NCBI RefSeq assembly: GCF_013122565.1
Contig: NZ_CP053258.1
Length of the DNA: 64,000 bases
Strand: one strand, 5' to 3'
Source: Escherichia coli
Lineage (GTDB): Bacteria > Pseudomonadota > Gammaproteobacteria > Enterobacterales > Enterobacteriaceae
In this document: one piece after another, positions 1-43,043 of the stretch
How the letters are laid out: each line of letters starts with the position of its first letter
How positions within the stretch are numbered: the stretch's first letter is position 1
Notes under the pieces: model-generated
Told to the model about the DNA's origin: nothing
The model's database searches: none
What the model saw: only the letters and a program-made list of their open reading frames with translations
Position numbers and translations under genes: made by a program

Positions 1-576
1 GTCTGGTTCCGCTACCGCGTTACTGGTAATACTGTCGAAAATTTTGTCGCCTGTATGTCCTATCACCATCGAACGCGAAGCATCGACCTGTTGCTTAATA
101 CTTTCTGTTCCGCCGACATAATCACCGTTAGCCTCACTAAACGGCGCAGTCTCTGTTTTATAACCGGCAAAAATGTAGCGCCCGTTACCGTCAGTGGTGT
201 TCGCCAGATTCAGCAACTGGTCACGAAGCCCCTGAATATCCGTAGCCAGCGAGGCCCGGTCATCGTCACTCAAGGTGCCATTGCTGGCGTAGACAATTTT
301 TTCCTGAGCATTCTGGATAGCAGTGGTGACCTGGCTAAGTACACTCTCTTCCAGTGAAACTTTTTGAGTGGCGAAAGTACGTGCCAGCGTGTACTGGCTG
401 TTTTGCGCCTGTGCCTGGGAGAGAACAACAGCTTGTGATGCAGCAATGGGATCGTCTGAAGGGTTAACGACTCGCTTACCCGTCGACATCTGTTCGCCGT
501 ACTTCATCCATTCTGCCTGAGAATTGGTGATGCCGCGCATGTTTTGCTGGTACATCATCTGGGTACTGAAACGCAT
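1..576 (-). CDS. flgL: Flagellar hook-associated protein 3 FlgL, N-terminal portion (gene continues beyond window start)
   Basis: Minus-strand translation from ATG at 574-576 reads MRFSTQMMYQQNMRGITNSQAEWMKYGEQMSTGKRV..., matching FlgL N-terminus; lies 12 nt downstream of flgK stop, as in the flg operon. Confidence 0.85.
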   Translation of the reverse strand, partial: MRFSTQMMYQQNMRGITNSQAEWMKYGEQMSTGKRVVNPSDDPIAASQAVVLSQAQAQNSQYTLARTFATQKVSLEESVLSQVTTAIQNAQEKIVYASNGTLSDDDRASLATDIQGLRDQLLNLANTTDGNGRYIFAGYKTETAPFSEANGDYVGGTESIKQQVDASRSMVIGHTGDKIFDSITSNAVAEPD

Positions 577-587
577 TTTATCTCCCC

Positions 588-2231
588 TTAGCGAATGTTA
601 ATCAGCGCATCAAAAATCGCGTTTGCCGTCTGCAGAACCTGCGCATTCGCCAGGTAATACTGCTGAAAACGTTGTAGATTTCCGTACTCCTCATCGAGAT
701 TGACACCGGAAATCGACTGCTGCTGATTGGAAAGCTGCGTCACCACATTACCTTGCGTGGTGCTACTGGTTTTCAACGTCGCGGTTTTATTACCGATATC
801 ACTCACTAACGAGGCATAAGCGTCGTTAAAGGATTTCGCTCCGCCCACCGTTTTACTGTTGCTTTGCAGATCCAGCAGGGCCTGACCGTTGCGGTTGTCG
901 CTATCACCCGCATCTTCTTCGCTCGCCATCGCGATTTTCGCTTCGTCGGTGATTAATACATCCATGTTGACGATGGCGTCACTTACTGGTTTCAGCGTGA
1001 AGCTGTCGTTAACGGCAGGCGTTCCTGTAAACGTCAACTCCAGACCATCAAATGCCACTTTACCGTTGGCATCCGGCGTCACCGTAAAAGTGGTATTGCT
1101 GGCAAGGCGGGTGACCTGCCACTGATTATTATCGAACGAGATTTTGTAATCTGTCGCCAGTACCGCGGAGGCATCAGTTACCGTGGCACCGATCGCAACG
1201 TCACCTTTGTTTTTCGTGTTTTGCAGAACCGCGGGCTTACCGATAGCAAAGAAATCTTCACCAGCATCGCCGTTGGCATCAAATCCGGCTTTGTGTTGGC
1301 TGTTGAAAGCCTCAGCAAATGCCAGCGCCAGTTGTCCAAGCGTATTACGCGTCTGGTCCAGATCCTGAGAACGGAATGTCAGAATGCCGCCCAGCGACCC
1401 GGTATTCAGTAATTTCTCCGGGATCTCAATATTGCCTGCCGCCCCATCAACATAAGCGACAGTCGTACGAGAAGGATCGGCGCTGGAAGGAACTGCCGCC
1501 AGTTGCCGCGCCGTACTTCCCTGAACCAGTGAGTAACCATTGGCCATCGTGATGTTATAAGTGCCGCCATCCTGAACGCTGACTTCTACACCAACAATCT
1601 GGTTTAATTCGCTCACCAGTTGATCGCGTTGATCCAGCAGATTGTTAGGTGACGCCCCTGCCCCCACGCCTGTCAGACGCGAGATTTGATCGTTCAGGCT
1701 GGCAATTTGTTTAGCGTAATTGTTGATCTGATCAACGCTGGCACCTATCGCGATATTGACCTGTTTGTCCTGGTCGCGCAGATATTGGTCGGTGGTTTTA
1801 AACTGATTCACCAACCCTTCTGATTTCCCAATCAGCGCCTGGCGCGCTGCCGGGTCTTCCGCGTTACTCACCAGCGTTTGCAGGCTGGTGAAGAAATCCT
1901 GCATCTGTGTTGCCAGCGAAGAGGTACTGGTGGAGAGCATATTGTCGATTTTCGACATCTGCTCATAGCGGGCAGTCAGGCCGCTACTTTGCGTCTGCGC
2001 CGCACGTAACTGGTTGGTAATAAACGCATCATACTCACGCTGCACACCAGAAACGTAGACACCATTGCCAACCCAGCCGCCAGCGCCCAACGTGCTATTG
2101 GCCTGCGCCATAATAGTGGTTTGGCGGGTATATCCGGCAACGTTATAGCTGGAGATATTATTACTTGCCGTATTTAACGCCGCCTGGGCCGCGTTCAGTC
2201 CGCTCATGGCGTTATTGATCAAGCTGGACAT
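588..2231 (-). CDS. flgK: Flagellar hook-associated protein 1 FlgK (547 aa)
   Basis: ORF translation MSSLINNAMSGLNAAQAALNTASNNISSYNVAGYTRQTT... with conserved C-terminus; synteny flgJ-flgK-flgL. Confidence 0.95.
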   Translation of the reverse strand: MSSLINNAMSGLNAAQAALNTASNNISSYNVAGYTRQTTIMAQANSTLGAGGWVGNGVYVSGVQREYDAFITNQLRAAQTQSSGLTARYEQMSKIDNMLSTSTSSLATQMQDFFTSLQTLVSNAEDPAARQALIGKSEGLVNQFKTTDQYLRDQDKQVNIAIGASVDQINNYAKQIASLNDQISRLTGVGAGASPNNLLDQRDQLVSELNQIVGVEVSVQDGGTYNITMANGYSLVQGSTARQLAAVPSSADPSRTTVAYVDGAAGNIEIPEKLLNTGSLGGILTFRSQDLDQTRNTLGQLALAFAEAFNSQHKAGFDANGDAGEDFFAIGKPAVLQNTKNKGDVAIGATVTDASAVLATDYKISFDNNQWQVTRLASNTTFTVTPDANGKVAFDGLELTFTGTPAVNDSFTLKPVSDAIVNMDVLITDEAKIAMASEEDAGDSDNRNGQALLDLQSNSKTVGGAKSFNDAYASLVSDIGNKTATLKTSSTTQGNVVTQLSNQQQSISGVNLDEEYGNLQRFQQYYLANAQVLQTANAIFDALINIR

Positions 2232-2264
2232 GGAGGTTCCTTATAAGCCTTTAATTACAGAGTA

Positions 2265-2291
2265 TTATCGGCAGCGACCCGCCGGACTTGA
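2265..2291 (-). promoter_or_regulatory. Candidate sigma28 (FliA) class 3 promoter for flgKL: TCAA-N15-GCCGATAA on minus strand
   Basis: Reverse complement of 2265-2291 reads TCAAGTCCGGCGGGTCGCTGCCGATAA; -10 element is a perfect GCCGATAA, 15-nt spacer, lies in the flgJ-flgK intergenic gap. Confidence 0.6.
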
Positions 2292-2296
2292 GTTAT

Positions 2297-3238
2297 TCAG
2301 AACAGATTATCAATGTTCATGCTGTAGGTTTTGCTCACCTTGTCGCTTATCGATTTCATCTGCTGAATCATGTTGGTGAGTTTACGGGCATAGTGAGGAT
2401 CGGTGGCATAGCCCGCGTCCTGTAGGGCCTGCGCCCCCTGCTCCGCACTCGCGGCGGTCGTCACGGCGGCGTAGCGCGGGTTACGTGTTAACAGCCCAAC
2501 GTAATCCGACAATGCTTCCAGATACGAGCTGTAGACCCGAAACTTCGCTTTTACTTTCTTCGCTTCGCCGTTTTCATATTCAGTCGTGGTAATTTCAGTG
2601 ACTGGCCCTTTCCAGTTGCCAGAGGCTTTGACACCAAACAGGTTATAGCTCGGCTCGCCGTTTTCGCGGCGGATTTGTCGTTGCCCCCAGCCAGATTCCA
2701 GCGCCGCCTGAGCGAGGATCAAATGATGTGGCACACCGCTTTGCTGGCTTGCCAGTTGGGCGGGCAGCGAGAGTTGCGCGAGGAATGCTTTACTGTCACC
2801 CGGCAGCGAATCATCGTAGTTACGTGGTACGGCCTTTTGCACCAGCTGAGAAAGCGTCTGATTTTGATAACGCACCACGGTTTCGAGCGGGAATTTCATC
2901 GGTGCTGCTGGCGTGGGCTCCTCTGGCAATGGTTGTTCTGGCATCATCTGTTTAACCATCATCTCTGCAAGCCCCAGACCTTTGCCCGCCGTCATCTGTT
3001 GGGCAATCTGCTGGTCATACATACTGGTATACAGGCGAGTGTGCTCGCTGCTGAACAGGCCATCTTTTGGTAAAGCGTCGCGCATGCTTTTCAACATCAT
3101 CTGCACGAACATCCCTTCCACCTGACGGGCCACCGGACGGATATTTGCCGCCGGATCTTCGCCCGCTTTCGCCTTTAGTTCGTTGAGTGATTGCGCATCC
3201 CAGGCCGCACTTGCCAGTAGTTTGCTGTCGCTGATCAT
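2297..3238 (-). CDS. flgJ: Flagellar rod assembly protein / peptidoglycan hydrolase FlgJ (313 aa)
   Basis: ORF contains [53 protein letters not shown]...; start chosen at ATG overlapping flgI stop (ATGA) rather than the longer track ORF. Confidence 0.9.
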   Translation of the reverse strand: MISDSKLLASAAWDAQSLNELKAKAGEDPAANIRPVARQVEGMFVQMMLKSMRDALPKDGLFSSEHTRLYTSMYDQQIAQQMTAGKGLGLAEMMVKQMMPEQPLPEEPTPAAPMKFPLETVVRYQNQTLSQLVQKAVPRNYDDSLPGDSKAFLAQLSLPAQLASQQSGVPHHLILAQAALESGWGQRQIRRENGEPSYNLFGVKASGNWKGPVTEITTTEYENGEAKKVKAKFRVYSSYLEALSDYVGLLTRNPRYAAVTTAASAEQGAQALQDAGYATDPHYARKLTNMIQQMKSISDKVSKTYSMNIDNLF

Positions 3239-4335
3239 CAGATGATTTCCAGTTTTGCCCGCAGACATCCCGCACTTTGCATTGATTGCAGTATGGACAT
3301 CAGATCCATCGGCGTAGCGCCCAGCGCATTGAGCGCGCGCACCACGTTATTGAGGCTGGCGCTGGAACGTACGCTTTGCAGCGAACCGCCGCTCTGGCGT
3401 AAATCGATCTGCGTTTGTGGAGTAACCACAGTCTGTCCACCACCAAACGGTGTATCTGGCTGGCTGACATTGGCCTGACGATTAACTGTTACTGAGAGAT
3501 TCCCCTGCGCTACCGCGCAGCTGTCGAGGGTCACTTCGCGATTCATCACCACCGAACCGGTGCGCGAGTTAATCACTACTTTAGCGTCCTGCGGGGTGAC
3601 ATTAACATGCATATTCTGAATATCGGCAAGGAAGCGGACCTGGGAACTGTTGCCACTCGGTACGCGCACCTGAATAGTCCGCGCATCTAACGCGGTGGCG
3701 CTGCCATATCCACGCACGCGGTTGATGGTGTCAGCGATTTGCTGCGCCATGCTGAAATCTTCGTCGTTAAGTTGCAAATTAAGGGTATTCCCGACGCCAA
3801 ACTGGCTGGGCAATTCACGTTCAATAACCGCACCATTGGTGATCCGTCCACCGTTCAGTTGGTTAACCTGAACACTGCTACCGCCAGCGGAGGCTCCTGC
3901 GCCGCCAACCAGAATATTGCCCTGCGCCAGCGCATACACCTGACTGTCAACGCCCTTAAGCGGTGTCATCAACAACGTACCTCCACGCAAGCTTTTGGCA
4001 TTTCCCATGGAAGAAACCACCACATCGATGGTTTGCCCCTGACGTCCAAACGGAGGAAGTGACGCTGTCACCATTACCGCAGCGACGTTTTTTAGCTGCA
4101 TATTGGTGCCCGTCGGAACGGTAATTCCCAGCTGTGAGAGCATGTTATTAAGCGTTTGTGTGGTAAACGGCGTCTGGGTTGTCTGGTCACCGGTGCCATC
4201 CAGCCCCACCACCAGACCATAGCCAATCAGTGAGTTTTGCCTTACCCCCTGAACACTGGTGAGATCGCGAATACGCTCAGCCTGAGCCGCCGTCGTGACC
4301 AGTAGAAGAATTAATGCAGAGAGAAATTTAATCAC
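3238..4335 (-). CDS. flgI: Flagellar P-ring protein FlgI (365 aa, GTG start)
   Basis: Translation (M)[30 protein letters not shown]... with signal peptide; synteny flgH-flgI-flgJ. Confidence 0.93.
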
Positions 4336-4346
4336 CACAGCCTCAC

Positions 4347-5045
4347 TTACATTGGCGACAGGTTAAGGAAGAAACGCTGCAACCAGCCCATATTTTGCGC
4401 TTCGTTAATGTAGCCATTGCCTACGTATTCAATGCGCGCATCCGCCACCTGAGTAGACGGTACGGTATTGCTGCCGCTGATAGTGCGTGGATTAACCACG
4501 CCAGAGAAGCGAATAAATTCGGTACCCTGATTAATGGCAATCTGTTTTTCACCCACCACATGCAGGTTGCCGTTGACCAGTACCTGGTCAACCGTCACCG
4601 TCAACGTGCCGCTAAAGGTATTGCTGGCATTGGCCCCGCCCTTTCCGTTGAACGTGTTACCACCGGAGGCTTCGACATCGGCACGAGCGTTACCAAACAG
4701 CCCCTGCAAATAGCGCGGCACAGTATCAAAGCCAAAATTAGTTTTACCGTCACGGCTGGCATTCGCAGAGGAGCTTTTGCTGGCGCTGACGTTCTCCTGC
4801 AACACGATGGTCAGCGTATCGCCAATATTGCGTGGTCGACGATCTTCAAACAGCGGTTGATAGCCATAGTTAATCGGCTGAGCAGACTGGAAAATAGAAC
4901 CGTTGGCGACGGGCGTCGGACCGGGAACCGGTTGTGCACTGGTCGCCCCCTGCACCAGCGGCGTGGAGGGTATCCAGGCGCAGCCGGTTAGTGAAAGCAC
5001 CAACAAGCTGGAAATGGCATAAGTATGCGCAGCGTTTTTTTGCAT
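4347..5045 (-). CDS. flgH: Flagellar L-ring lipoprotein FlgH (232 aa)
   Basis: Translation [22 protein letters not shown]... (lipobox LTGC); internal start preferred over longer track ORF. Confidence 0.92.
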
Positions 5046-5097
5046 GGCTATCATCTTCAAAAATCAGTAAACCGGTGAACCTGCCACCGGTTAAGCC

Positions 5098-5898
<801 letters not shown>

Positions 5899-5920
5899 TT
5901 AGTGACAAAGTGCATATGTC

Positions 5921-6030
<110 letters not shown>

Positions 6031-6051
6031 ACTTGTCATGTATCCTTTCAA

Positions 6052-6807
6052 TTAACTCATCGACAGCAGTTGGTTGGCACGGCCTGCGTTATCATCGACG
6101 CTGCTGATCACCTTCATCTGCATTTCAAAACGCCGCGCGCTGGCAATCATGTCGCTCATTGCCGCAACGGCATTAACGTTACTGCCTTCCAGAACCCCCG
6201 ACATCACACGCAAGGTTGGATCTGCCTGCAGTACCGGTCCACGCGTGGCCTGGGTTTCTGCGCTTAAACGAAAAATGCCGTCGTCACCGCGCTGCACTTC
6301 GCTGCCCGTGGCTTTCACCAGCTTCAGACGCCCCACTGGCGCAACCGTATTTGCCGGATCGCCCGGATTCAGCGCCGAGATTGTGCCATCGGCAGCAATA
6401 GTGATTTCCGCCCCTTCCGGCACAGCAATTGGCCCAGCCTCGCCTATCACCGGATGCCCCTGAATTGTCAGTTGCCCGGTGGGATCAACCTGAATGCTGC
6501 CATTACGCGTATACCCTTCGCTGCCGTCAGCGGTCTGCACGGCCAGCCAGCCATCCTGCTGCAACGCGACGTCCAGCGGGCGCGAGGTGTAATCCATTTT
6601 TCCGGGCGTCATATCTGCGCCCGGCGTTGACGCCGTGACCAACGTGCGCGTGGGCAGAGAAAGCCCTTCCACTGGCACCGCGCGTAAAGCATTCAACTGC
6701 GCGCGAAAACCGGGCGTTGAGGCATTGGCCAGATTACTGGCGGTTACCGCCTGTTGATTCAGTGTCTGGCTGGCTGCTCCCATCGCGGTATAAATTGCGT
6801 GATCCAT
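6052..6807 (-). CDS. flgF: Flagellar proximal rod protein FlgF (251 aa)
   Basis: Translation MDHAIYTAMGAASQTLNQQAVTASNLANASTPGFRAQLNALRAVPV...; synteny. Confidence 0.95.
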   Translation of the reverse strand: MDHAIYTAMGAASQTLNQQAVTASNLANASTPGFRAQLNALRAVPVEGLSLPTRTLVTASTPGADMTPGKMDYTSRPLDVALQQDGWLAVQTADGSEGYTRNGSIQVDPTGQLTIQGHPVIGEAGPIAVPEGAEITIAADGTISALNPGDPANTVAPVGRLKLVKATGSEVQRGDDGIFRLSAETQATRGPVLQADPTLRVMSGVLEGSNVNAVAAMSDMIASARRFEMQMKVISSVDDNAGRANQLLSMS

Positions 6808-6826
6808 TGAGCTATCCCGTCAGCGA

Positions 6827-8032
6827 TTAGCGTAAGTTAACCAGCGTGTTGAGGATCTGGTCCTGGGTTTTGATGGTCTGGGCGTTAGACTGATAGTTAC
6901 GCTGGGCAACGATCATATTGACCAGTTCTTTACTGAGATCGACGTTGGACGCTTCCAGCGCACCGTTGGTCAGGGTGCCAAAGTTTCCCGTCCCGGCTGT
7001 CCCCAACAGCGCCACGCCAGAAGATTGCGTCGCAGACCAGACGTTGTCGCCTTCGGATGCCAGACCTTCGTTGTTGGCAAAGTTCGCCAGTACAATCTGC
7101 CCCAGCAGTTGGGTTTGTTCGTTGGAATAGTTGCCGACAACCGTACCGTCATCATTGATTTGATAACTCACCAGATCCCCCGGTTTGTAGCCGTTCTGGG
7201 TGGTTGCCACAATGTTGTTAGCGCCGGTATTTTGCTGCATGGAGTTGAGGAAGCTCAGGCTAAACGTGGCGGGTTCTGCGCCGTTAATTGCGCCAGTGGT
7301 AATATTCTCTGTTGGATTTGAGGTCAGAACGCCATTGGAATTAAACACCAGCGTCATTGCATGGTCAGCTGTGCCTGTTGGATCACTGCTATCCTGGGTG
7401 TAGACCTGCCAGTTATTATCCCCGGTCTTCACAAAGTACACGCTCATGTCATGAGCATTACCCTGACTGTCGAAAACAGTCACCGAACCTTTTTTGTTAT
7501 AGCTATCCGCATTGCTGGCATCAAATGCGTTAACAGTAGGAAGCGGATCACTGGAATTCAGGTTGATCTGCATCGACGCCGTGGTGGTAGTTTTCGCTGC
7601 CATCAGGGTATTCGGGATCGAAATATTGGTCGGATTCGCCCCTTGCTGAATAGTCGGCGGCGTACCGGTTGCCGGGTAACCCGTCAGCTGTAAACCTTGC
7701 ATATTCACCAGGTTACGGTTTTCATCCAGCTTAAATTGTCCGTTACGGCTGTAGAACACCGAACCGTTGCTGTCTACCAGACGGAAAAAACCGTTCTGGC
7801 TGATAGCAACGTCCAGACCACGCCCGGTGTTGGTGGTCGTGCCATCGGTAAAGTCCTGAGTGATACCGGCAACTTTTACCCCCAGTCCCACTTTCGAACC
7901 GGCAAACATATCGGCAAAAGAGGCCGTGCCTGATTTAAAGCCGTATGTGGCGGAGTTGGCGATATTGTTGCCAATAACATCGAGGTTGGTGGCGGCAGCG
8001 TTTAATCCGCTAACCGCTTGAGAAAAGGCCAT
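6827..8032 (-). CDS. flgE: Flagellar hook protein FlgE (401 aa)
   Basis: Translation MAFSQAVSGLNAAATNLDVIGNNIANSATYGFKSG... and conserved C-terminus ...QDQILNTLVNLR. Confidence 0.95.
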   Translation of the reverse strand: MAFSQAVSGLNAAATNLDVIGNNIANSATYGFKSGTASFADMFAGSKVGLGVKVAGITQDFTDGTTTNTGRGLDVAISQNGFFRLVDSNGSVFYSRNGQFKLDENRNLVNMQGLQLTGYPATGTPPTIQQGANPTNISIPNTLMAAKTTTTASMQINLNSSDPLPTVNAFDASNADSYNKKGSVTVFDSQGNAHDMSVYFVKTGDNNWQVYTQDSSDPTGTADHAMTLVFNSNGVLTSNPTENITTGAINGAEPATFSLSFLNSMQQNTGANNIVATTQNGYKPGDLVSYQINDDGTVVGNYSNEQTQLLGQIVLANFANNEGLASEGDNVWSATQSSGVALLGTAGTGNFGTLTNGALEASNVDLSKELVNMIVAQRNYQSNAQTIKTQDQILNTLVNLR

Positions 8033-8056
8033 GACTGACTCCTGAAATGTGAAGGC

Positions 8057-8752
8057 TTAAATTATCTGCCGTACTTCGTCGAGGGTGGTGGTGCCGTAAG
8101 TGCCGAGATCCAGCGTATTACCTTTGTTGCCGCGGATCACACCCTGCACCAGAGCAAACTGCAGCGGCTGGGCAACCAGTTGTGTACCACCGTTACTGGC
8201 GCTAATCGCTACGTTGTAAGAACCGTTCGGCGCAGTGCTGCCGTCAGTCAACGTACCGTCCCAGGTGAAACTGTGGACTCCGGCGGTCAGTTCACCAATA
8301 TCAATGGTGCGCACAACCGCGCCATTTTTATCGGTGATGGTGGCCGTAACTTTGTCTGCCGCCTGTTGCAGCTCAACACCAAACGGCGTGGTCGTGGTCA
8401 CAGCCCCTTCTTCACTGCCGGTTCCCGCAAGAACAGTGGTGCCGGGGATCATCACGCCGTGACCGATCAGGTTACTGGCCTGTAACGACTGGCTGTTATC
8501 AATCTGTCCGGAAATAGATCCGAGCGTGGTATTGAGTTTTTCAATCCCGCTGACCGTGCTGATTTGTGCCAATTGCGACGTCAGCTCGTTGTTTTCCATT
8601 GGATTGGTCGGGTCCTGGTTTTTCAGCTGCGCCACCAGCAAAGTCAGAAAACTGCTTTGTAAATCTGCGGCGTTGCTGCCCGTGAGCGAACTACTGCTGG
8701 TGGTACTGACGCCGGTATTTGTCGGATCGGTGGTGGTTACCGCAATGGACAT
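8057..8752 (-). CDS. flgD: Flagellar hook capping/assembly protein FlgD (231 aa)
   Basis: Translation MSIAVTTTDPTNTGVSTTSSSSLTGSNAADLQSSFLTLLVAQLKNQDPTNPM... Confidence 0.95.
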   Translation of the reverse strand: MSIAVTTTDPTNTGVSTTSSSSLTGSNAADLQSSFLTLLVAQLKNQDPTNPMENNELTSQLAQISTVSGIEKLNTTLGSISGQIDNSQSLQASNLIGHGVMIPGTTVLAGTGSEEGAVTTTTPFGVELQQAADKVTATITDKNGAVVRTIDIGELTAGVHSFTWDGTLTDGSTAPNGSYNVAISASNGGTQLVAQPLQFALVQGVIRGNKGNTLDLGTYGTTTLDEVRQII

Positions 8753-8763
8753 AGCTTTCTCCT

Positions 8764-9168
8764 TTATTGACCGAGCGTAAGGGTTTTCAGCATCATGCTT
8801 TTCACCGTGTTGAGCACTTCAACATTGGCCTGATAGCTGCGTGACGCCGACATGGTGTTAACCATCTCTCCGACGACATCAACGTTTGGCATTTTCACGT
8901 AACCCTTTGCATCCGCCAGCGGATTACCCGGTTCATAAACCAGTTTGTCCGGGGCCTGACTTTCTATAACATCGGCAACCTTTACGCCGCCTGTCGCAGC
9001 ACCTGGTGCAGCGTTAACCTGGAATACCACCTGTTTTGCCCGATATGGCTGTCCATCGGGACCGGTCACGCTATCAGCATTCGCCAGATTACTGGCCGCC
9101 ACGTTCAGGCGCTGGGACTGGGCAGTTAACGCCGACCCGGCGATATCAAAAATATTCAGCAGTGCCAT
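8764..9168 (-). CDS. flgC: Flagellar proximal rod protein FlgC (134 aa)
   Basis: Translation [46 protein letters not shown]... Confidence 0.95.
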
Positions 9169-9171
9169 CCG

Positions 9172-9588
9172 TTAATTTCCGCTCTGTAAAACGTTCATCA
9201 TGCCTTTGATTTGCCCGCTCAACGCGCTAAGGCTCATCTGGTATTGCAGGCTGTTATCGGCAAACTGGGTACGTTCGCGATCCATATCGACGGTATTACC
9301 GTCAAGCGAAGGCTGGTCCGGAATACGGTATTGCAGTTCTGCGGTAGGAGGCGTCAGCGCCTGCGCCGGAATGTGTTGCGTTGAGGTCATCGTCAGTGCA
9401 ACCACGCTGGTTGCATCCCGTCCACGTTGCATGACTTTTTTAAGTTCACTGGCAAAATCGATATCGCGCGCCTGATAACCAGGGGTATCGGCGTTGGCGA
9501 TGTTTGCTGCCAGCACTTCCTGACGCTGGGCGCGCAGATTGAGCGCCTCTTGTTGAAAACGTAAGGCGGCGTCGAGCTTATCGAGCAT
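9172..9588 (-). CDS. flgB: Flagellar proximal rod protein FlgB (138 aa)
   Basis: Translation [45 protein letters not shown]... Confidence 0.95.
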
Positions 9589-9742
9589 ATCTCCTCCGCA
9601 GGTATCAAAATTCTGCCATCAGCTTAAATGCCTTTACGCGCGCGTTATCGGCGGAATAAACGCAAAATGGGTCGCTATTTATGCCGTTGATGGTCATTGC
9701 GGACAGGTACAATTCACGTTGTAGAAATGGCTGGGGGCGAAA
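9589..9742. promoter_or_regulatory. Divergent flgB / flgA promoter region (flagellar class 2, FlhDC-dependent by analogy)
   Basis: 154-bp gap between divergently oriented flgB (minus) and flgA (plus) start codons; individual FlhD4C2 boxes not resolved by eye. Confidence 0.6.
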
Positions 9743-10402
9743 ATGCTGGCAATAAAACGTAGCGTGGCGATCATCGCGATACTGTTCAGTCCGTTAAGTG
9801 CGGCGAGCAATCTCACATCGCAATTGCAAACCTTTTTTAGCGCCCAGCTCGCAGGGATAAGTGATGAGGTTCGTGTTTCTATTCGTACAGCGCCCAATCT
9901 ACTACCGCCGTGCGAGCAGCCATTGCTTTCGATGAGCAATAATTCCCGCTTGTGGGGCAATGTGAATGTGTTGGCACGCTGCGGTAACGACAAACGATAT
10001 TTACAGGTTAATGTGCAGGCCACAGGAAATTATGTGGTTGCCGCGATGCCCATTGTGCGAGGAGGAAAGCTGGGAGCTGGCAATGTCAAACTGAAACGCG
10101 GACGGCTGGATACCTTGCCACCGCATACGGTGCTGGATATCAATCAACTTGTTGATGCCGTTAGCCTGCGCGACCTATCACCCGATCAACCTATCCAGTT
10201 AACCCAGTTTCGCCAGGCATGGCGGGTAAAAGCGGGACAACGCGTCAACGTGATCGCCAGCGGTGATGGGTTTAGCGCCAACGCAGAAGGTCAGGCGCTG
10301 AACAATGCAGCCGTCGCACAGAATGCGCGGGTGCGCATGGTATCTGGACAGGTAGTCAGCGGCGTTGTTGATGCAGATGGGAATATTCTTATAAACCTGT
10401 AA
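9743..10402 (+). CDS. flgA: Flagellar P-ring assembly chaperone FlgA (219 aa)
   Basis: Translation MLAIKRSVAIIAILFSPLSAASNLTSQLQTFFSAQLAGISDEVRVSIRTAP... Confidence 0.93.
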   Translation: MLAIKRSVAIIAILFSPLSAASNLTSQLQTFFSAQLAGISDEVRVSIRTAPNLLPPCEQPLLSMSNNSRLWGNVNVLARCGNDKRYLQVNVQATGNYVVAAMPIVRGGKLGAGNVKLKRGRLDTLPPHTVLDINQLVDAVSLRDLSPDQPIQLTQFRQAWRVKAGQRVNVIASGDGFSANAEGQALNNAAVAQNARVRMVSGQVVSGVVDADGNILINL

Positions 10403-10407
10403 GCTGT

Positions 10408-10434
10408 TAAAGATTACCCGTCCCTTGCCGATAA
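10408..10434 (+). promoter_or_regulatory. sigma28 (FliA) class 3 promoter upstream of flgMN, perfect consensus TAAA-N15-GCCGATAA
   Basis: TAAAGATTACCCGTCCCTTGCCGATAA read directly, about 44 nt upstream of the flgM ATG. Confidence 0.85.
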
Positions 10435-10477
10435 ATAAGCAACACATGATAAAAGCGCCCTCAATGAGGAATAAACC

Positions 10478-10771
10478 ATGAGTATTGATCGCACTTCGCC
10501 TCTGAAGCCCGTAAGCACCGTTCAACCGCGCGAAACCACTGACGCGCCGGTAACGAACACCCGGGCGGCAAAAACAACAGCATCCACCAGCACCAGTGTG
10601 ACGTTAAGCGACGCGCAAGCAAAACTGATGCAACCCGGCAGCAGTGATATCAATCTTGAACGTGTCGAAGCGTTAAAACTGGCGATTCGTAACGGTGAAC
10701 TAAAAATGGACACCGGCAAAATTGCCGATGCGCTGATCAACGAAGCGCAGCAAGACTTGCAGAGTAATTAA
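10478..10771 (+). CDS. flgM: Anti-sigma-28 factor FlgM (97 aa)
   Basis: Translation [34 protein letters not shown]...[38 protein letters not shown]. Confidence 0.95.
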
Positions 10772-10775
10772 TCGT

Positions 10776-11192
10776 ATGACGCGTCTTGCAGAGATCCTCG
10801 ACCAGATGTCCGCTGTGCTTAACGATCTCAAAACGGTAATGGATCAAGAGCAGCAACATCTCTCTATGGGGCAGATCAACGGCAGCCAGTTGCAATGGAT
10901 TACAGAACAAAAAAGCTCACTGCTGGCAACGTTGGATTACCTCGAACAGTTACGCAGGAAAGAACCCAATACTGCAAATAGCGTTGATATTAGTCAACGC
11001 TGGCAGGAAATTGCTGTGAAAACGCAGCAACTACGCCAAATGAATCAACATAACGGCTGGTTACTGGAAGGACAGATTGAGCGCAATCAACAGGCGCTGG
11101 AAATGTTGAAACCGCATCAGGAACCGACGCTATATGGGGCGAACGGCCAGACCTCAACAACCCATCGCGGCAGCAAAAAGATTTCGATCTGA
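10776..11192 (+). CDS. flgN: Flagellar export chaperone FlgN (138 aa)
   Basis: Translation MTRLAEILDQMSAVLNDLKTVMDQEQQHLSMGQINGSQLQWITEQKSSLLATLDYLEQLRR... Confidence 0.95.
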   Translation: MTRLAEILDQMSAVLNDLKTVMDQEQQHLSMGQINGSQLQWITEQKSSLLATLDYLEQLRRKEPNTANSVDISQRWQEIAVKTQQLRQMNQHNGWLLEGQIERNQQALEMLKPHQEPTLYGANGQTSTTHRGSKKISI

Positions 11193-11201
11193 AGATTATC
11201 T

Positions 11202-11222
11202 CCGGCCTGCACTGCAGGCCGG
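11202..11222. terminator. Bidirectional hairpin terminator between convergent flgN and murJ
   Basis: CCGGCCTGC-ACT-GCAGGCCGG perfect 9-bp stem between flgN stop (11192) and murJ stop (11232). Confidence 0.7.
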
Positions 11223-11231
11223 AATGTATTG

Positions 11232-12854
<1,623 letters not shown>

Positions 12855-17947: not shown

Positions 17948-17998
17948 TTATCCTTTGTGTCCGGCAAAAACATCCCTTCAGCCGGAGCATAGAGATTA

Positions 17999-20022: not shown

Positions 20023-21141
20023 ATGAAATACGATCTCATCATTATTGGCAGCGGTTCCGTAGGCGCTGCCGCCGGGTATTATGCAACCCGCGCCGGTTTA
20101 AACGTGCTTATGACCGACGCCCATATGCCACCACATCAACACGGCAGCCACCACGGCGATACGCGATTAATTCGCCATGCTTATGGTGAAGGCGAAAAGT
20201 ATGTCCCGCTGGTCCTCCGCGCGCAAACGCTGTGGGATGAGCTCTCCCGCCACAACGAAGATGATCCCATTTTTGTACGCTCTGGTGTCATTAACCTCGG
20301 TCCGGCTGACTCCGCATTTCTCGCCAACGTCGCCCACAGCGCCGAACAGTGGCAACTCAACGTTGAAAAGCTCGATGCGCAAGGGATTATGGCCCGCTGG
20401 CCAGAAATACGCGTCCCGGACAACTACATCGGCTTATTTGAGACTGATTCCGGCTTTTTACGCAGCGAACTGGCGATTAAAACCTGGATCCAACTGGCGA
20501 AGGAAGCGGGCTGTGCGCAGCTGTTCAACTGCCCGGTCACCGCAATTCGTCATGACGATGATGGCGTAACTATTGAAACGGCTGATGGTGAGTATCAGGC
20601 GAAAAAAGCGATTGTCTGCGCGGGAACATGGGTAAAAGACCTACTCCCGGAGTTGCCTGTCCAGCCCGTTCGCAAAGTATTTGCCTGGTATCAGGCCGAT
20701 GGGCGCTATAGCGTGAAGAATAAGTTCCCGGCGTTTACCGGTGAACTGCCCAATGGCGATCAATATTATGGTTTTCCGGCAGAAAACGACGCGTTGAAGA
20801 TTGGCAAACATAACGGAGGCCAGATTATCCATTCAGCGGATGAACGTGTTCCGTTTGCGGAAGTGGACAGCGATGGTTCGGAAGCCTTCCCGTTCTTGCG
20901 CAATGTATTGCCGGGCATCGGTTGCTGCCTGTACGGAGCTGCCTGCACCTATGATAATTCGCCTGACGAAGATTTTATTATCGATACCCTACCCGGCCAC
21001 GATAATACACTGCTCATTACCGGCCTGAGTGGGCACGGTTTTAAATTTGCGTCAGTTTTAGGGGAAATAGCTGCCGATTTTGCGCAAGACAAAAAAAGCG
21101 ATTTTGATTTGACGCCATTCAGGCTTTCCCGCTTCCAATAA
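20023..21141 (+). CDS. solA: N-methyl-L-tryptophan oxidase SolA (372 aa)
   Basis: Translation [57 protein letters not shown]... (FAD-binding GSGSVG). Confidence 0.95.
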
Positions 21142-27094: not shown

Positions 27095-27195
27095 GCCGGA
27101 TGTGGCGTGAACACCTTATCCGACCTACAAAATCTTGCAAAATCAATAAATTGCAGGACCGATGTAGGCCTGATAAGCGTAGCGCATCAGGCAAC
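27095..27195. repeat. BIME: two REP units in inverted orientation between opgH and yceK
   Basis: GCCGGATGTGGCGTGAACACCTTATCCGACCTACA and GATGTAGGCCTGATAAGCGTAGCGCATCAGGCAA. Confidence 0.8.
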
Positions 27196-36658: not shown

Positions 36659-37410
36659 GTTGTCACCCTGGACCTGGTCGTACATTTAAGAAATTAAATC
36701 ATTTCAACTTGGTTGTTAACGCAACCTGTATTTTGTTAACGCTGCGTTACGATGGAAAGTATGTCTGCGGAAATATTTTTAATAACTCACCCGCGCGTTG
36801 TATTTTTCTTTTTTTGTTCATACCAAAGTATTAAAAGCCACGTAAATACGCTGTTATCTACGCAAAAAATATTTTGTTTTCTTTTAAATCTCCGTTTCCG
36901 CTATCAAAAATCACCAGACAGTCATTCTTCTTGCCCGTCGCTGATTGCTGCGATATGTCTTGCGCACAAGCCGTGACAAACCTCGTCTTTTTGCAGTAAA
37001 AAATTGTCCACGGAGGTGTGGAGAAAAAACAACAACTTTTTACATGACGAAAGGACTACACCGAAATATTTTTTATATGCATTATTAGTAAGTTATCACC
37101 ATTTGTATGATTTTTTAAAATTGTGCAATAAAAACCAAATGTACAACTTTTCTATCATTTCTAAACTTAATAAAACCTTAAGGTTAACATTTTAATATAA
37201 CGAGTTACATTTAGTTACATGTTTAACACTTGATTTAAGATTTGTAATGGCTAGATTGAAATCAGATGTAATCCATTAGTTTTATATTTTACCCATTTAG
37301 GGCTGATTTATTACTACACACAGCAGTGCAACATCTGTCAGTACTTCTGGTGCTTCTATTTTAGAGGCAGCTGTCAGGTGTGCGATCAATAAAAAAAGCG
37401 GGGTTTCATC
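36659..37410. promoter_or_regulatory. csgBAC / csgDEFG divergent intergenic regulatory region (about 750 bp, AT-rich)
   Basis: Long AT-rich gap between divergent csgB and csgD start codons; by established knowledge of the csg locus this carries the sigmaS-dependent csgD and csgB promoters and multiple regulator sites; individual sites not resolved by eye. Confidence 0.7.
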
Positions 37411-42955: not shown

Positions 42956-43043
42956 GGTGAGGTGTCCGAGTGGCTGAAGGAGCACGCCTGGAAAGTGTGT
43001 ATACGGCAACGTATCGGGGGTTCGAATCCCCCCCTCACCGCCA
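42956..43043 (+). tRNA. serX: tRNA-Ser (anticodon GGA), serX/serW type
   Basis: 88-nt sequence GGTGAGGTGTCCGAGTGGCTGAAGGAGCACGCCTGGAAAGTGTGTATACGGCAACGTATCGGGGGTTCGAATCCCCCCCTCACCGCCA with long variable arm, anticodon loop CUGGAAA, 3' CCA; divergent from ghrA as in K-12. Confidence 0.95.

Follow-up and report, generated by a model that had tools for sequence, protein, structure and literature searches.

Control elements of the flg region 1 genes in an Escherichia coli genome and their counterparts in K-12

In Salmonella enterica the flg genes were reportedly recognised by Gillen and Hughes in 1993 as overlapping operons, flgAMN with flgMN and flgB to flgJ with flgKL. At the flgA/flgB region of E. 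coli, Stafford and colleagues are said to have mapped the promoters flgAP1 and flgBP1 in 2005. Kutsukake & Ide (1995) and Wozniak et al (2010), as cited in PMC4183435, also describe the overlapping Salmonella operons, the logic of which is shared by E. coli: class 2 read-through is combined with an internal class 3 promoter for both flgM and flgK, and export of FlgM likewise couples transcription to assembly. The match of these class 2 promoters to the consensus is poor, and polymerase is recruited to them only through FlhDC (PMC4183435). In addition to flgAP1 and flgBP1, the gap between flgB and flgA has recently been described as containing a divergent pair of sigma28 promoters, flgBP2 and flgAP2, with one shared -35 element (Klimova et al, 2026; PMC12781870). 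The FlhD4C2 site covers both of these, FlhD4C2 occluding and repressing them, and opening of flgBP2 is poor in the absence of MarA, which binds between the elements of this promoter and distorts the base pair at -11 (PMC12781870).

The DNA analysed here is a stretch of 64,000 nt from E. coli, referred to as the window, and all coordinates are window positions. The flg genes and the control region between flgB and flgA are arranged as follows.

9589-9742, divergent flgB/flgA control region of 154 bp, from the ORF coordinates
9588-9172, minus strand, flgB coding sequence, with its ATG at 9588
9743-10402, plus strand, flgA coding sequence of 219 residues, with its ATG at 9743 and its stop codon at 10400-10402; opens the class 2 flgAMN operon
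10478-10771, plus strand, flgM coding sequence, the anti-sigma28 factor
10776-11192, plus strand, flgN coding sequence, the FlgK/FlgL chaperone
588-9588, minus strand, flgBCDEFGHIJ and flgK coding sequences, with flgC to flgK following flgB down to 588; driven by the promoters studied here
1-576, minus strand, flgL, with 192 of its 317 codons present, cut by the start of the window

The ORFs thus bear out the initial annotation, which had flgB and flgA diverging from a 154-bp gap, and the same 154 bp is present in K-12. The spacer between flgA and flgM is 75 bp. While the ORFs, the sequence features, the identity to K-12 and the conservation come from the present analysis, the binding and transcription data are those of published K-12 work on identical sequence, and this strain presumably behaves like K-12. 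Taken together, the interval very probably has the canonical layout of control elements for the flg region 1 genes of E. coli.

On alignment with K-12 MG1655 the 154-bp gap, the flgA-flgM spacer with its promoter and the flgK motif are all 100% identical, and the gap is also 100% identical in strain PT62. In the flgA/flgB region the gap itself is free of differences from K-12, and the first to appear are at two neighbouring bases in codons 4-5 of flgA. Near the flgK motif, but outside it, there are two substitutions: a G of the K-12 5' UTR is A here, and the other is at the 3' end of flgJ. The promoter elements, and their positions relative to flgM and flgK, are the same as those of the K-12 FliA promoters (PMC4183435). 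More widely, the region is matched in 5425 of 5426 complete E. coli genomes with a best identity of 99.6%; at an identity of at least 99%, the gap is found in 4165 of these 5425 and the flgM spacer in 5181. Even in the lineage of strain YZ22PE165, which is about 85-90% identical overall, the changes in the flgM spacer fall only in the sigma28 spacer and the UTR, and the gap retains TTATCGGC, GCCGTTGA and TACAAT intact, with the FlhDC box one base different.

The 13 flg genes that are whole in the window, flgN through flgK, are all of full length relative to K-12 and free of stop codons and frameshifts. FlgN, M, A, B, C, D, E, F, G, H, I, J and K align end to end with 95-100% identity to their K-12 counterparts (FlgA 95.9%, FlgM 99.0%, FlgN 98.6%), FlgE having a single gap, 401 residues against 402, as it does in strain PT62. 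A Shigella origin with a decayed locus, considered because the best identity was only 99.6%, was rejected in view of the intact ORFs. The initial annotation had taken the promoter motifs to confirm that the locus is intact. For flgN through flgK this is upheld by the protein comparison, but the motifs alone are insufficient to carry it and flgL is truncated where the window begins. The control elements are of textbook type and intact, and the locus gives no argument against motility, although, with flhDC and fliA outside the window, motility is not established from it. The 3' end of flgL falls beyond the window, as would the FlgO sRNA that is annotated after flgL in K-12.

The gap contains an FlhD4C2 box with a clear sigma70 -10 element on the flgA side and a weak candidate on the flgB side.

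9647-9688, FlhD4C2 box, a 42-bp imperfect palindrome with arms ATCGGCGGAATAAACG on the flgB side and CGCTATTTATGCCGTT on the flgA side and a 10-nt spacer
9708-9713, plus strand, sigma70 -10 element TACAAT of flgAP1 (class 2), about 19 nt past the flgA-side arm
9626-9621, minus strand, candidate sigma70 -10 element TAAGCT of flgBP1 (class 2), weak but the best hexamer at the expected position

Of the 28 positions specified by AAYGSSNNAAATAGCG-N10-12-CGCTATTTNNSSCRTT, the box agrees with 24, where shuffled sequences gave a mean of 16 and a maximum of 21. The agreement is uneven, the flgA-side arm matching the FlhDC consensus at 14 of 14 positions and the flgB-side arm at 10 of 14. The flgA/flgB 42-mer in the FlhDC SELEX list (PMC9962212 Table 1) is the reverse complement of the box, and the FlhDC ChIP-seq peak centred at 1130152 in NC_000913.2 (fold above threshold, FAT, 13/16; PMC4183435) converts to about window position 9678, inside the gap. 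The conversion used an offset of 776, with which the centres of both sigma28 motifs, those of flgM and flgK described below, were reproduced to within one base. In a K-12 flhD deletion, flgA and flgB mRNA drop about 100-fold or more (PMC4183435). A scan of 9400-11400 for consensus sigma70 promoters found none in the gap; this is expected, as class 2 promoters are activator-dependent, and for such promoters the scan is uninformative.

To compare the locus across genera, species-representative genomes were scanned with a conserved peptide motif of FlgB, a probe selected without reference to the promoters, and flgB, flgA, flgM, flgN and flgK were found by tblastn in the 120 loci obtained. With no Salmonella sequence among these loci, the comparison at the level of bases is with Citrobacter, Enterobacter and others only. 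The distance from the FlhDC box to the flgB ATG is 58-60 nt in most of the enterobacterial loci, in which the flgA -10 element also keeps a constant offset, and GGTA(C/G/A)AAT about 19 nt after the box is kept in Escherichia, Citrobacter, Enterobacter and others.

The sigma28 consensus used throughout is TAAA, 15 nt and GCCGATAA, equivalent to TAAAGTTT-N11-GCCGATAA, with 12 specified positions. Its -10 octamer also occurs within the gap, and the elements corresponding to flgBP2, flgAP2 and MarA are placed as follows.

9652-9645, minus strand, sigma28 -10 element of flgBP2, an exact GCCGATAA that points at flgB and has a poor -35 element
9683-9690, plus strand, sigma28 -10 element of flgAP2, GCCGTTGA, with 6 of 8 matches; the octamer targeted by a mutagenic primer in PMC12781870
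9663-9671 (approximate), region likely to hold the -35 element common to flgAP2 and flgBP2, counted 11 nt inward from each -10 octamer
9653-9673 (approximate), MarA binding site inside the FlhD4C2 box, with limits extrapolated from the distortions reported in PMC12781870

The exact octamer at 9652-9645 was overlooked in the initial annotation although it lies inside the very interval that was annotated. The -10 element of flgBP2 and its A-11 were placed from the supplement of PMC12781870, using the mutagenic primer in which GCCGATAA is changed and the oligonucleotide with a mismatch at -11 (TTATCGG to TTAACGG). This puts A-11 at 9648 and the start at about 9637, and by analogy with the numbering of flgBP2 the start of flgAP2 would be at about 9698. 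Transcript lengths of 141 and 116 nt on the flgB side and of 154 and 131 nt on the flgA side (PMC12781870) place the P1 starts downstream of the P2 starts by 25 nt for flgBP1 and 23 nt for flgAP1, from which transcription from P1 is likely to begin at about 9612 and 9721, respectively. The octamers mutated in PMC12781870, the T opposite A-11 and the surrounding sequence are the same in the window as in the K-12 fragment.

The distortions induced by MarA are 5 bp to each side of its site, one of them at -11 of flgBP2, which corresponds to 9648 (PMC12781870), and it is from these that the site was placed. A match by hand between the flgBP2 elements to the marbox consensus, AYnGCACnnWnnRYYAAAYn, reached at best 9 of 14 positions and failed to locate the site.

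The description of the gap as a class 2 region in the initial annotation is therefore right as far as it goes, as seen from the FlhD4C2 box and the FlhDC peak, but the gap is not purely class 2, given flgBP2, flgAP2 and the MarA site (PMC12781870). In the mechanism proposed, one FlhD4C2 hexamer on the 42-bp box would recruit sigma70 RNA polymerase to two weak promoters set back to back, with flgBP1 driving flgBCDEFGHIJ(KL) and flgAP1 driving flgAMN. As flgBP2 and flgAP2 overlap the box, FlhD4C2 would at the same time shut both of them off, and MarA, bound between the elements of flgBP2, would help to open that promoter.

How much flgBP2 and flgAP2 matter in cells can be argued either way, and it is quite conceivable, if somewhat short of probable, that the gap is effectively pure class 2, the two sigma28 promoters being by-products of the FlhD4C2 half-site that carry little weight in vivo. 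The FlhDC palindrome has the -10 octamers of flgBP2 and flgAP2 as its outer arms, and the half-site SSCRTT resembles GCCGAT and GCCGTT. Nor does conservation single out sigma28, as TTATCG, which is conserved across genera, also overlaps the region where the -35 element of flgBP1 is expected. In K-12, FliA ChIP-seq gave no site at flgAP2 or flgBP2, and overexpressed FliA failed to restore either flgA or flgB in an flhD deletion (PMC4183435). On the other hand, the sigma28 holoenzyme transcribes both flgBP2 and flgAP2 in vitro, with mutations in the -10 elements abolishing this, and in vivo a lacZ activation dependent on both MarA and flgBP2 was seen when sigma28 was supplied without FlhDC (PMC12781870). 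Furthermore, the flgB-side arm departs from the FlhDC consensus exactly where GCCGAT becomes exact, at box position 2, which is T for A.

The same substitution bears on a further proposal, that the flgB-side arm is a deliberately dual-use element in which selection maintains a hand-over from FlhDC and sigma70 to sigma28 with MarA. T for A is alone enough to convert the half-site complement GCCGTT into an exact GCCGATAA, and Escherichia, Citrobacter and Enterobacter all retain the core CGATAA. We regard this as rather unlikely, and it would be only a modest extension of the proposal of Klimova et al (2026). If it were true, the rod and hook genes would be re-expressed for flagellar repair after the levels of FlhDC fall. 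Under the canonical reading, the annotation usefully gains the recently described promoters controlled by sigma28 and MarA, which lie in the 'class 2' gap as well.

Downstream of these promoters, each of the two transcription units contains a class 3 promoter.

10408-10434, plus strand, class 3 (sigma28) promoter of flgM, TAAAGATTACCCGTCCCTTGCCGATAA, with 0 mismatches to TAAA-N15-GCCGATAA in the pattern search
2291-2265, minus strand, class 3 (sigma28) promoter of flgK, TCAAGTCCGGCGGGTCGCTGCCGATAA, with one mismatch, TCAA(GTCC)-N11-GCCGATAA

Upstream of flgM the -35 element TAAA(GATT) occupies 10408-10415 and the -10 element GCCGATAA 10427-10434, which would place the start of the class 3 transcript at about 10442. 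The motif lies entirely inside the flgA-flgM spacer, beginning 6 nt past the stop codon of flgA, and ends at 10434. From there it is 44 nt to the A of the flgM ATG (10478), with 43 nt intervening, in agreement with the perfect motif at exact spacing, 44 nt upstream of flgM, that had been annotated. The near-consensus TCAA-N15-GCCGATAA that had been annotated on the minus strand at 2265-2291 was likewise recovered; it is in the flgJ-flgK spacer, about 33-34 nt from the flgK ATG at 2231. At N15 the flgM motif matches the consensus at 12 of 12 positions and the flgK motif at 11 of 12, and on re-inspection for point differences both -10 elements are exact. Both motifs are intergenic and oriented toward late flagellar genes, 33-43 nt ahead of them. 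In the window as a whole, TAAA-N15-GCCGATAA with at most one mismatch occurs four times against 0.32 expected, a number reached in 0 of 100 shuffles, and the octamer GCCGATAA occurs eight times against 2.1 expected. Folding of the predicted flgM 5' UTR (10442-10500) gave no structure beyond that of shuffled sequences (z = 0.28).

The same two sequences have been shown to bind FliA in K-12. The ChIP-seq sites are the 28-mers TAAAGATTACCCGTCCCTTGCCGATAAA for flgMN and TCAAGTCCGGCGGGTCGCTGCCGATAAT for flgKL (PMC4183435 Table 2), with FAT values of 48 for flgM and 47 for flgK (Fitzgerald, Bonocora & Wade, 2014; PMC4183435). In SELEX in vitro with the RpoF holoenzyme, a peak of 15.0 was found in the flgA-flgM spacer and a stronger one of 27.2 in the flgJ-flgK spacer (Shimada et al, 2017; PMC5493296). 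Comparison with the mapped promoters, which had been suggested as a check, thus finds sequences identical to those of K-12, on which FliA and FlhDC ChIP-seq are available (PMC4183435), and the features are, as had been stated, the expected ones.

In K-12 at mid-log in LB, deletion of fliA lowered flgM mRNA from 451 to 318 and flgK mRNA from 318 to 138 (PMC4183435), a small change, so that the class 3 promoters contribute little under those conditions. When fliA was overexpressed in an flhD deletion, flgM returned to wild-type levels or above (PMC4183435); the class 3 promoters become strong once FliA is abundant. It could be argued from this restoration, from the match at 12 of 12 positions at optimal spacing and from the FAT of 48 that most flgM mRNA comes from the perfect-consensus class 3 promoter, with read-through from flgA a minor source. 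This seems improbable, as most of the flgM transcript is still present without fliA while deletion of flhD cuts the flgA operon about 100-fold (PMC4183435), which makes most of the flgM transcript FlhDC-dependent under those conditions.

In the canonical arrangement, FlgM made by read-through of flgAMN would keep sigma28 inactive until the hook-basal body is complete, whereupon FlgM would be exported and the sigma28 (FliA) so freed would fire the class 3 promoters of flgM and flgK, each in the spacer ahead of its gene. With class 2 read-through in addition to class 3 promoters of their own, flgMN and flgKL are transcribed twice over, and this double transcription would provide feedback on sigma28 activity and would also keep junction proteins and chaperone supplied independently of FlhDC.

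Both class 3 promoters are conserved beyond Escherichia. Upstream of flgM, at least 11 of the 12 positions are matched at exactly N15 in 38 of 48 cross-genus loci, compared with 0.08% of shuffles. The genera with this motif are Citrobacter, Enterobacter, Pseudescherichia, Superficieibacter, Cedecea, Buttiauxella, Phytobacter and Siccibacter, together with Serratia, Edwardsiella, Brenneria, Sodalis, Photorhabdus, Xenorhabdus, Moellerella and Providencia. For the flgK promoter, 10 of 15 loci reach the same threshold (null 0). The TCAAG variant of the flgK -35 element is kept in Citrobacter, Enterobacter, Phytobacter and Superficieibacter, from which the near-consensus C is seen to be a stable feature rather than a sign of decay. 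In Citrobacter, Enterobacter and others the flgM -10 element is about 60 nt from the ATG, compared with 43 nt here, and often ends in G (GCCGATAG); the shorter flgM leader appears to be specific to Escherichia. The Citrobacter loci in which the 130 nt upstream of flgM contain a -10 element ending in G (GCCGATAG) are L016, L032, L065, L085, L115 and L116.

That the sigma28-like motifs are chance matches without promoter function can be dismissed as extremely improbable, for although matches at 7261-7287 and 21017-21043 show that near-matches can arise without function, the excess over expectation, the correct orientation and short distance to late genes of the flg motifs, their retention across genera and the strong FliA ChIP-seq and SELEX peaks on identical sequence have already refuted it. 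The flg control region in this genome is real, functional and already known, with nothing in it that departs from K-12, and its significance beyond annotation is small.

The matches at 7261-7287 (plus strand, in flgE) and 21017-21043 (minus strand, in solA) are the one-mismatch motifs TAAA-N15-GCCGTTAA and TAAA-N15-GCCGGTAA, and both are antisense to the gene in which they lie. As promoters they were rejected; they are absent from the K-12 FliA ChIP-seq list and are probably chance, non-functional occurrences. Similarly rejected was an exact copy of GCCGATAA within flgB (9254-9261, minus strand), which is without TAAA at N15 and has no FliA ChIP site in K-12.

A further observation concerns the spacer between flgF and flgG (5881-6051). 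At 171 bp it has the same length as in K-12, with nearly identical sequence, and it contains a REP-like palindrome, GCCGGATAAGGCGTTTACGCCGCATCCGGC; in PT62, the closest complete genome, the spacer differs, being 137 bp long. The RpoF holoenzyme gave an in vitro SELEX peak of 6.7 in the K-12 spacer (PMC5493296), which may perhaps reflect the presence of GCCGGATAA, a sequence that resembles the sigma28 -10 element.

Elsewhere in the window, Rfam matches at the gathering score were found for the PyrC leader (17949-17998) ahead of pyrC, the ES036 (CssrF) sRNA (27129-27171) adjoining opgH and the ES056 sRNA (37264-37355) just upstream of the csgD ORF. The remnant of an integrated element lies within 42956-64000, adjoining a tRNA-Ser(GGA) gene at 42956-43043. 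Its genes encode a DUF4942 protein, a CbtA/YeeU toxin-antitoxin pair, an antirestriction protein, a DUF932 protein and a GTPase, and it includes IS66 fragments; a chaperone-usher fimbrial operon follows at 55993-61190. The part of the window from 40000 to 64000 is covered to at least 80% by only 3 of 5426 complete E. coli genomes, its best match being the baboon isolate PapRG-06-5 with 99.6%.
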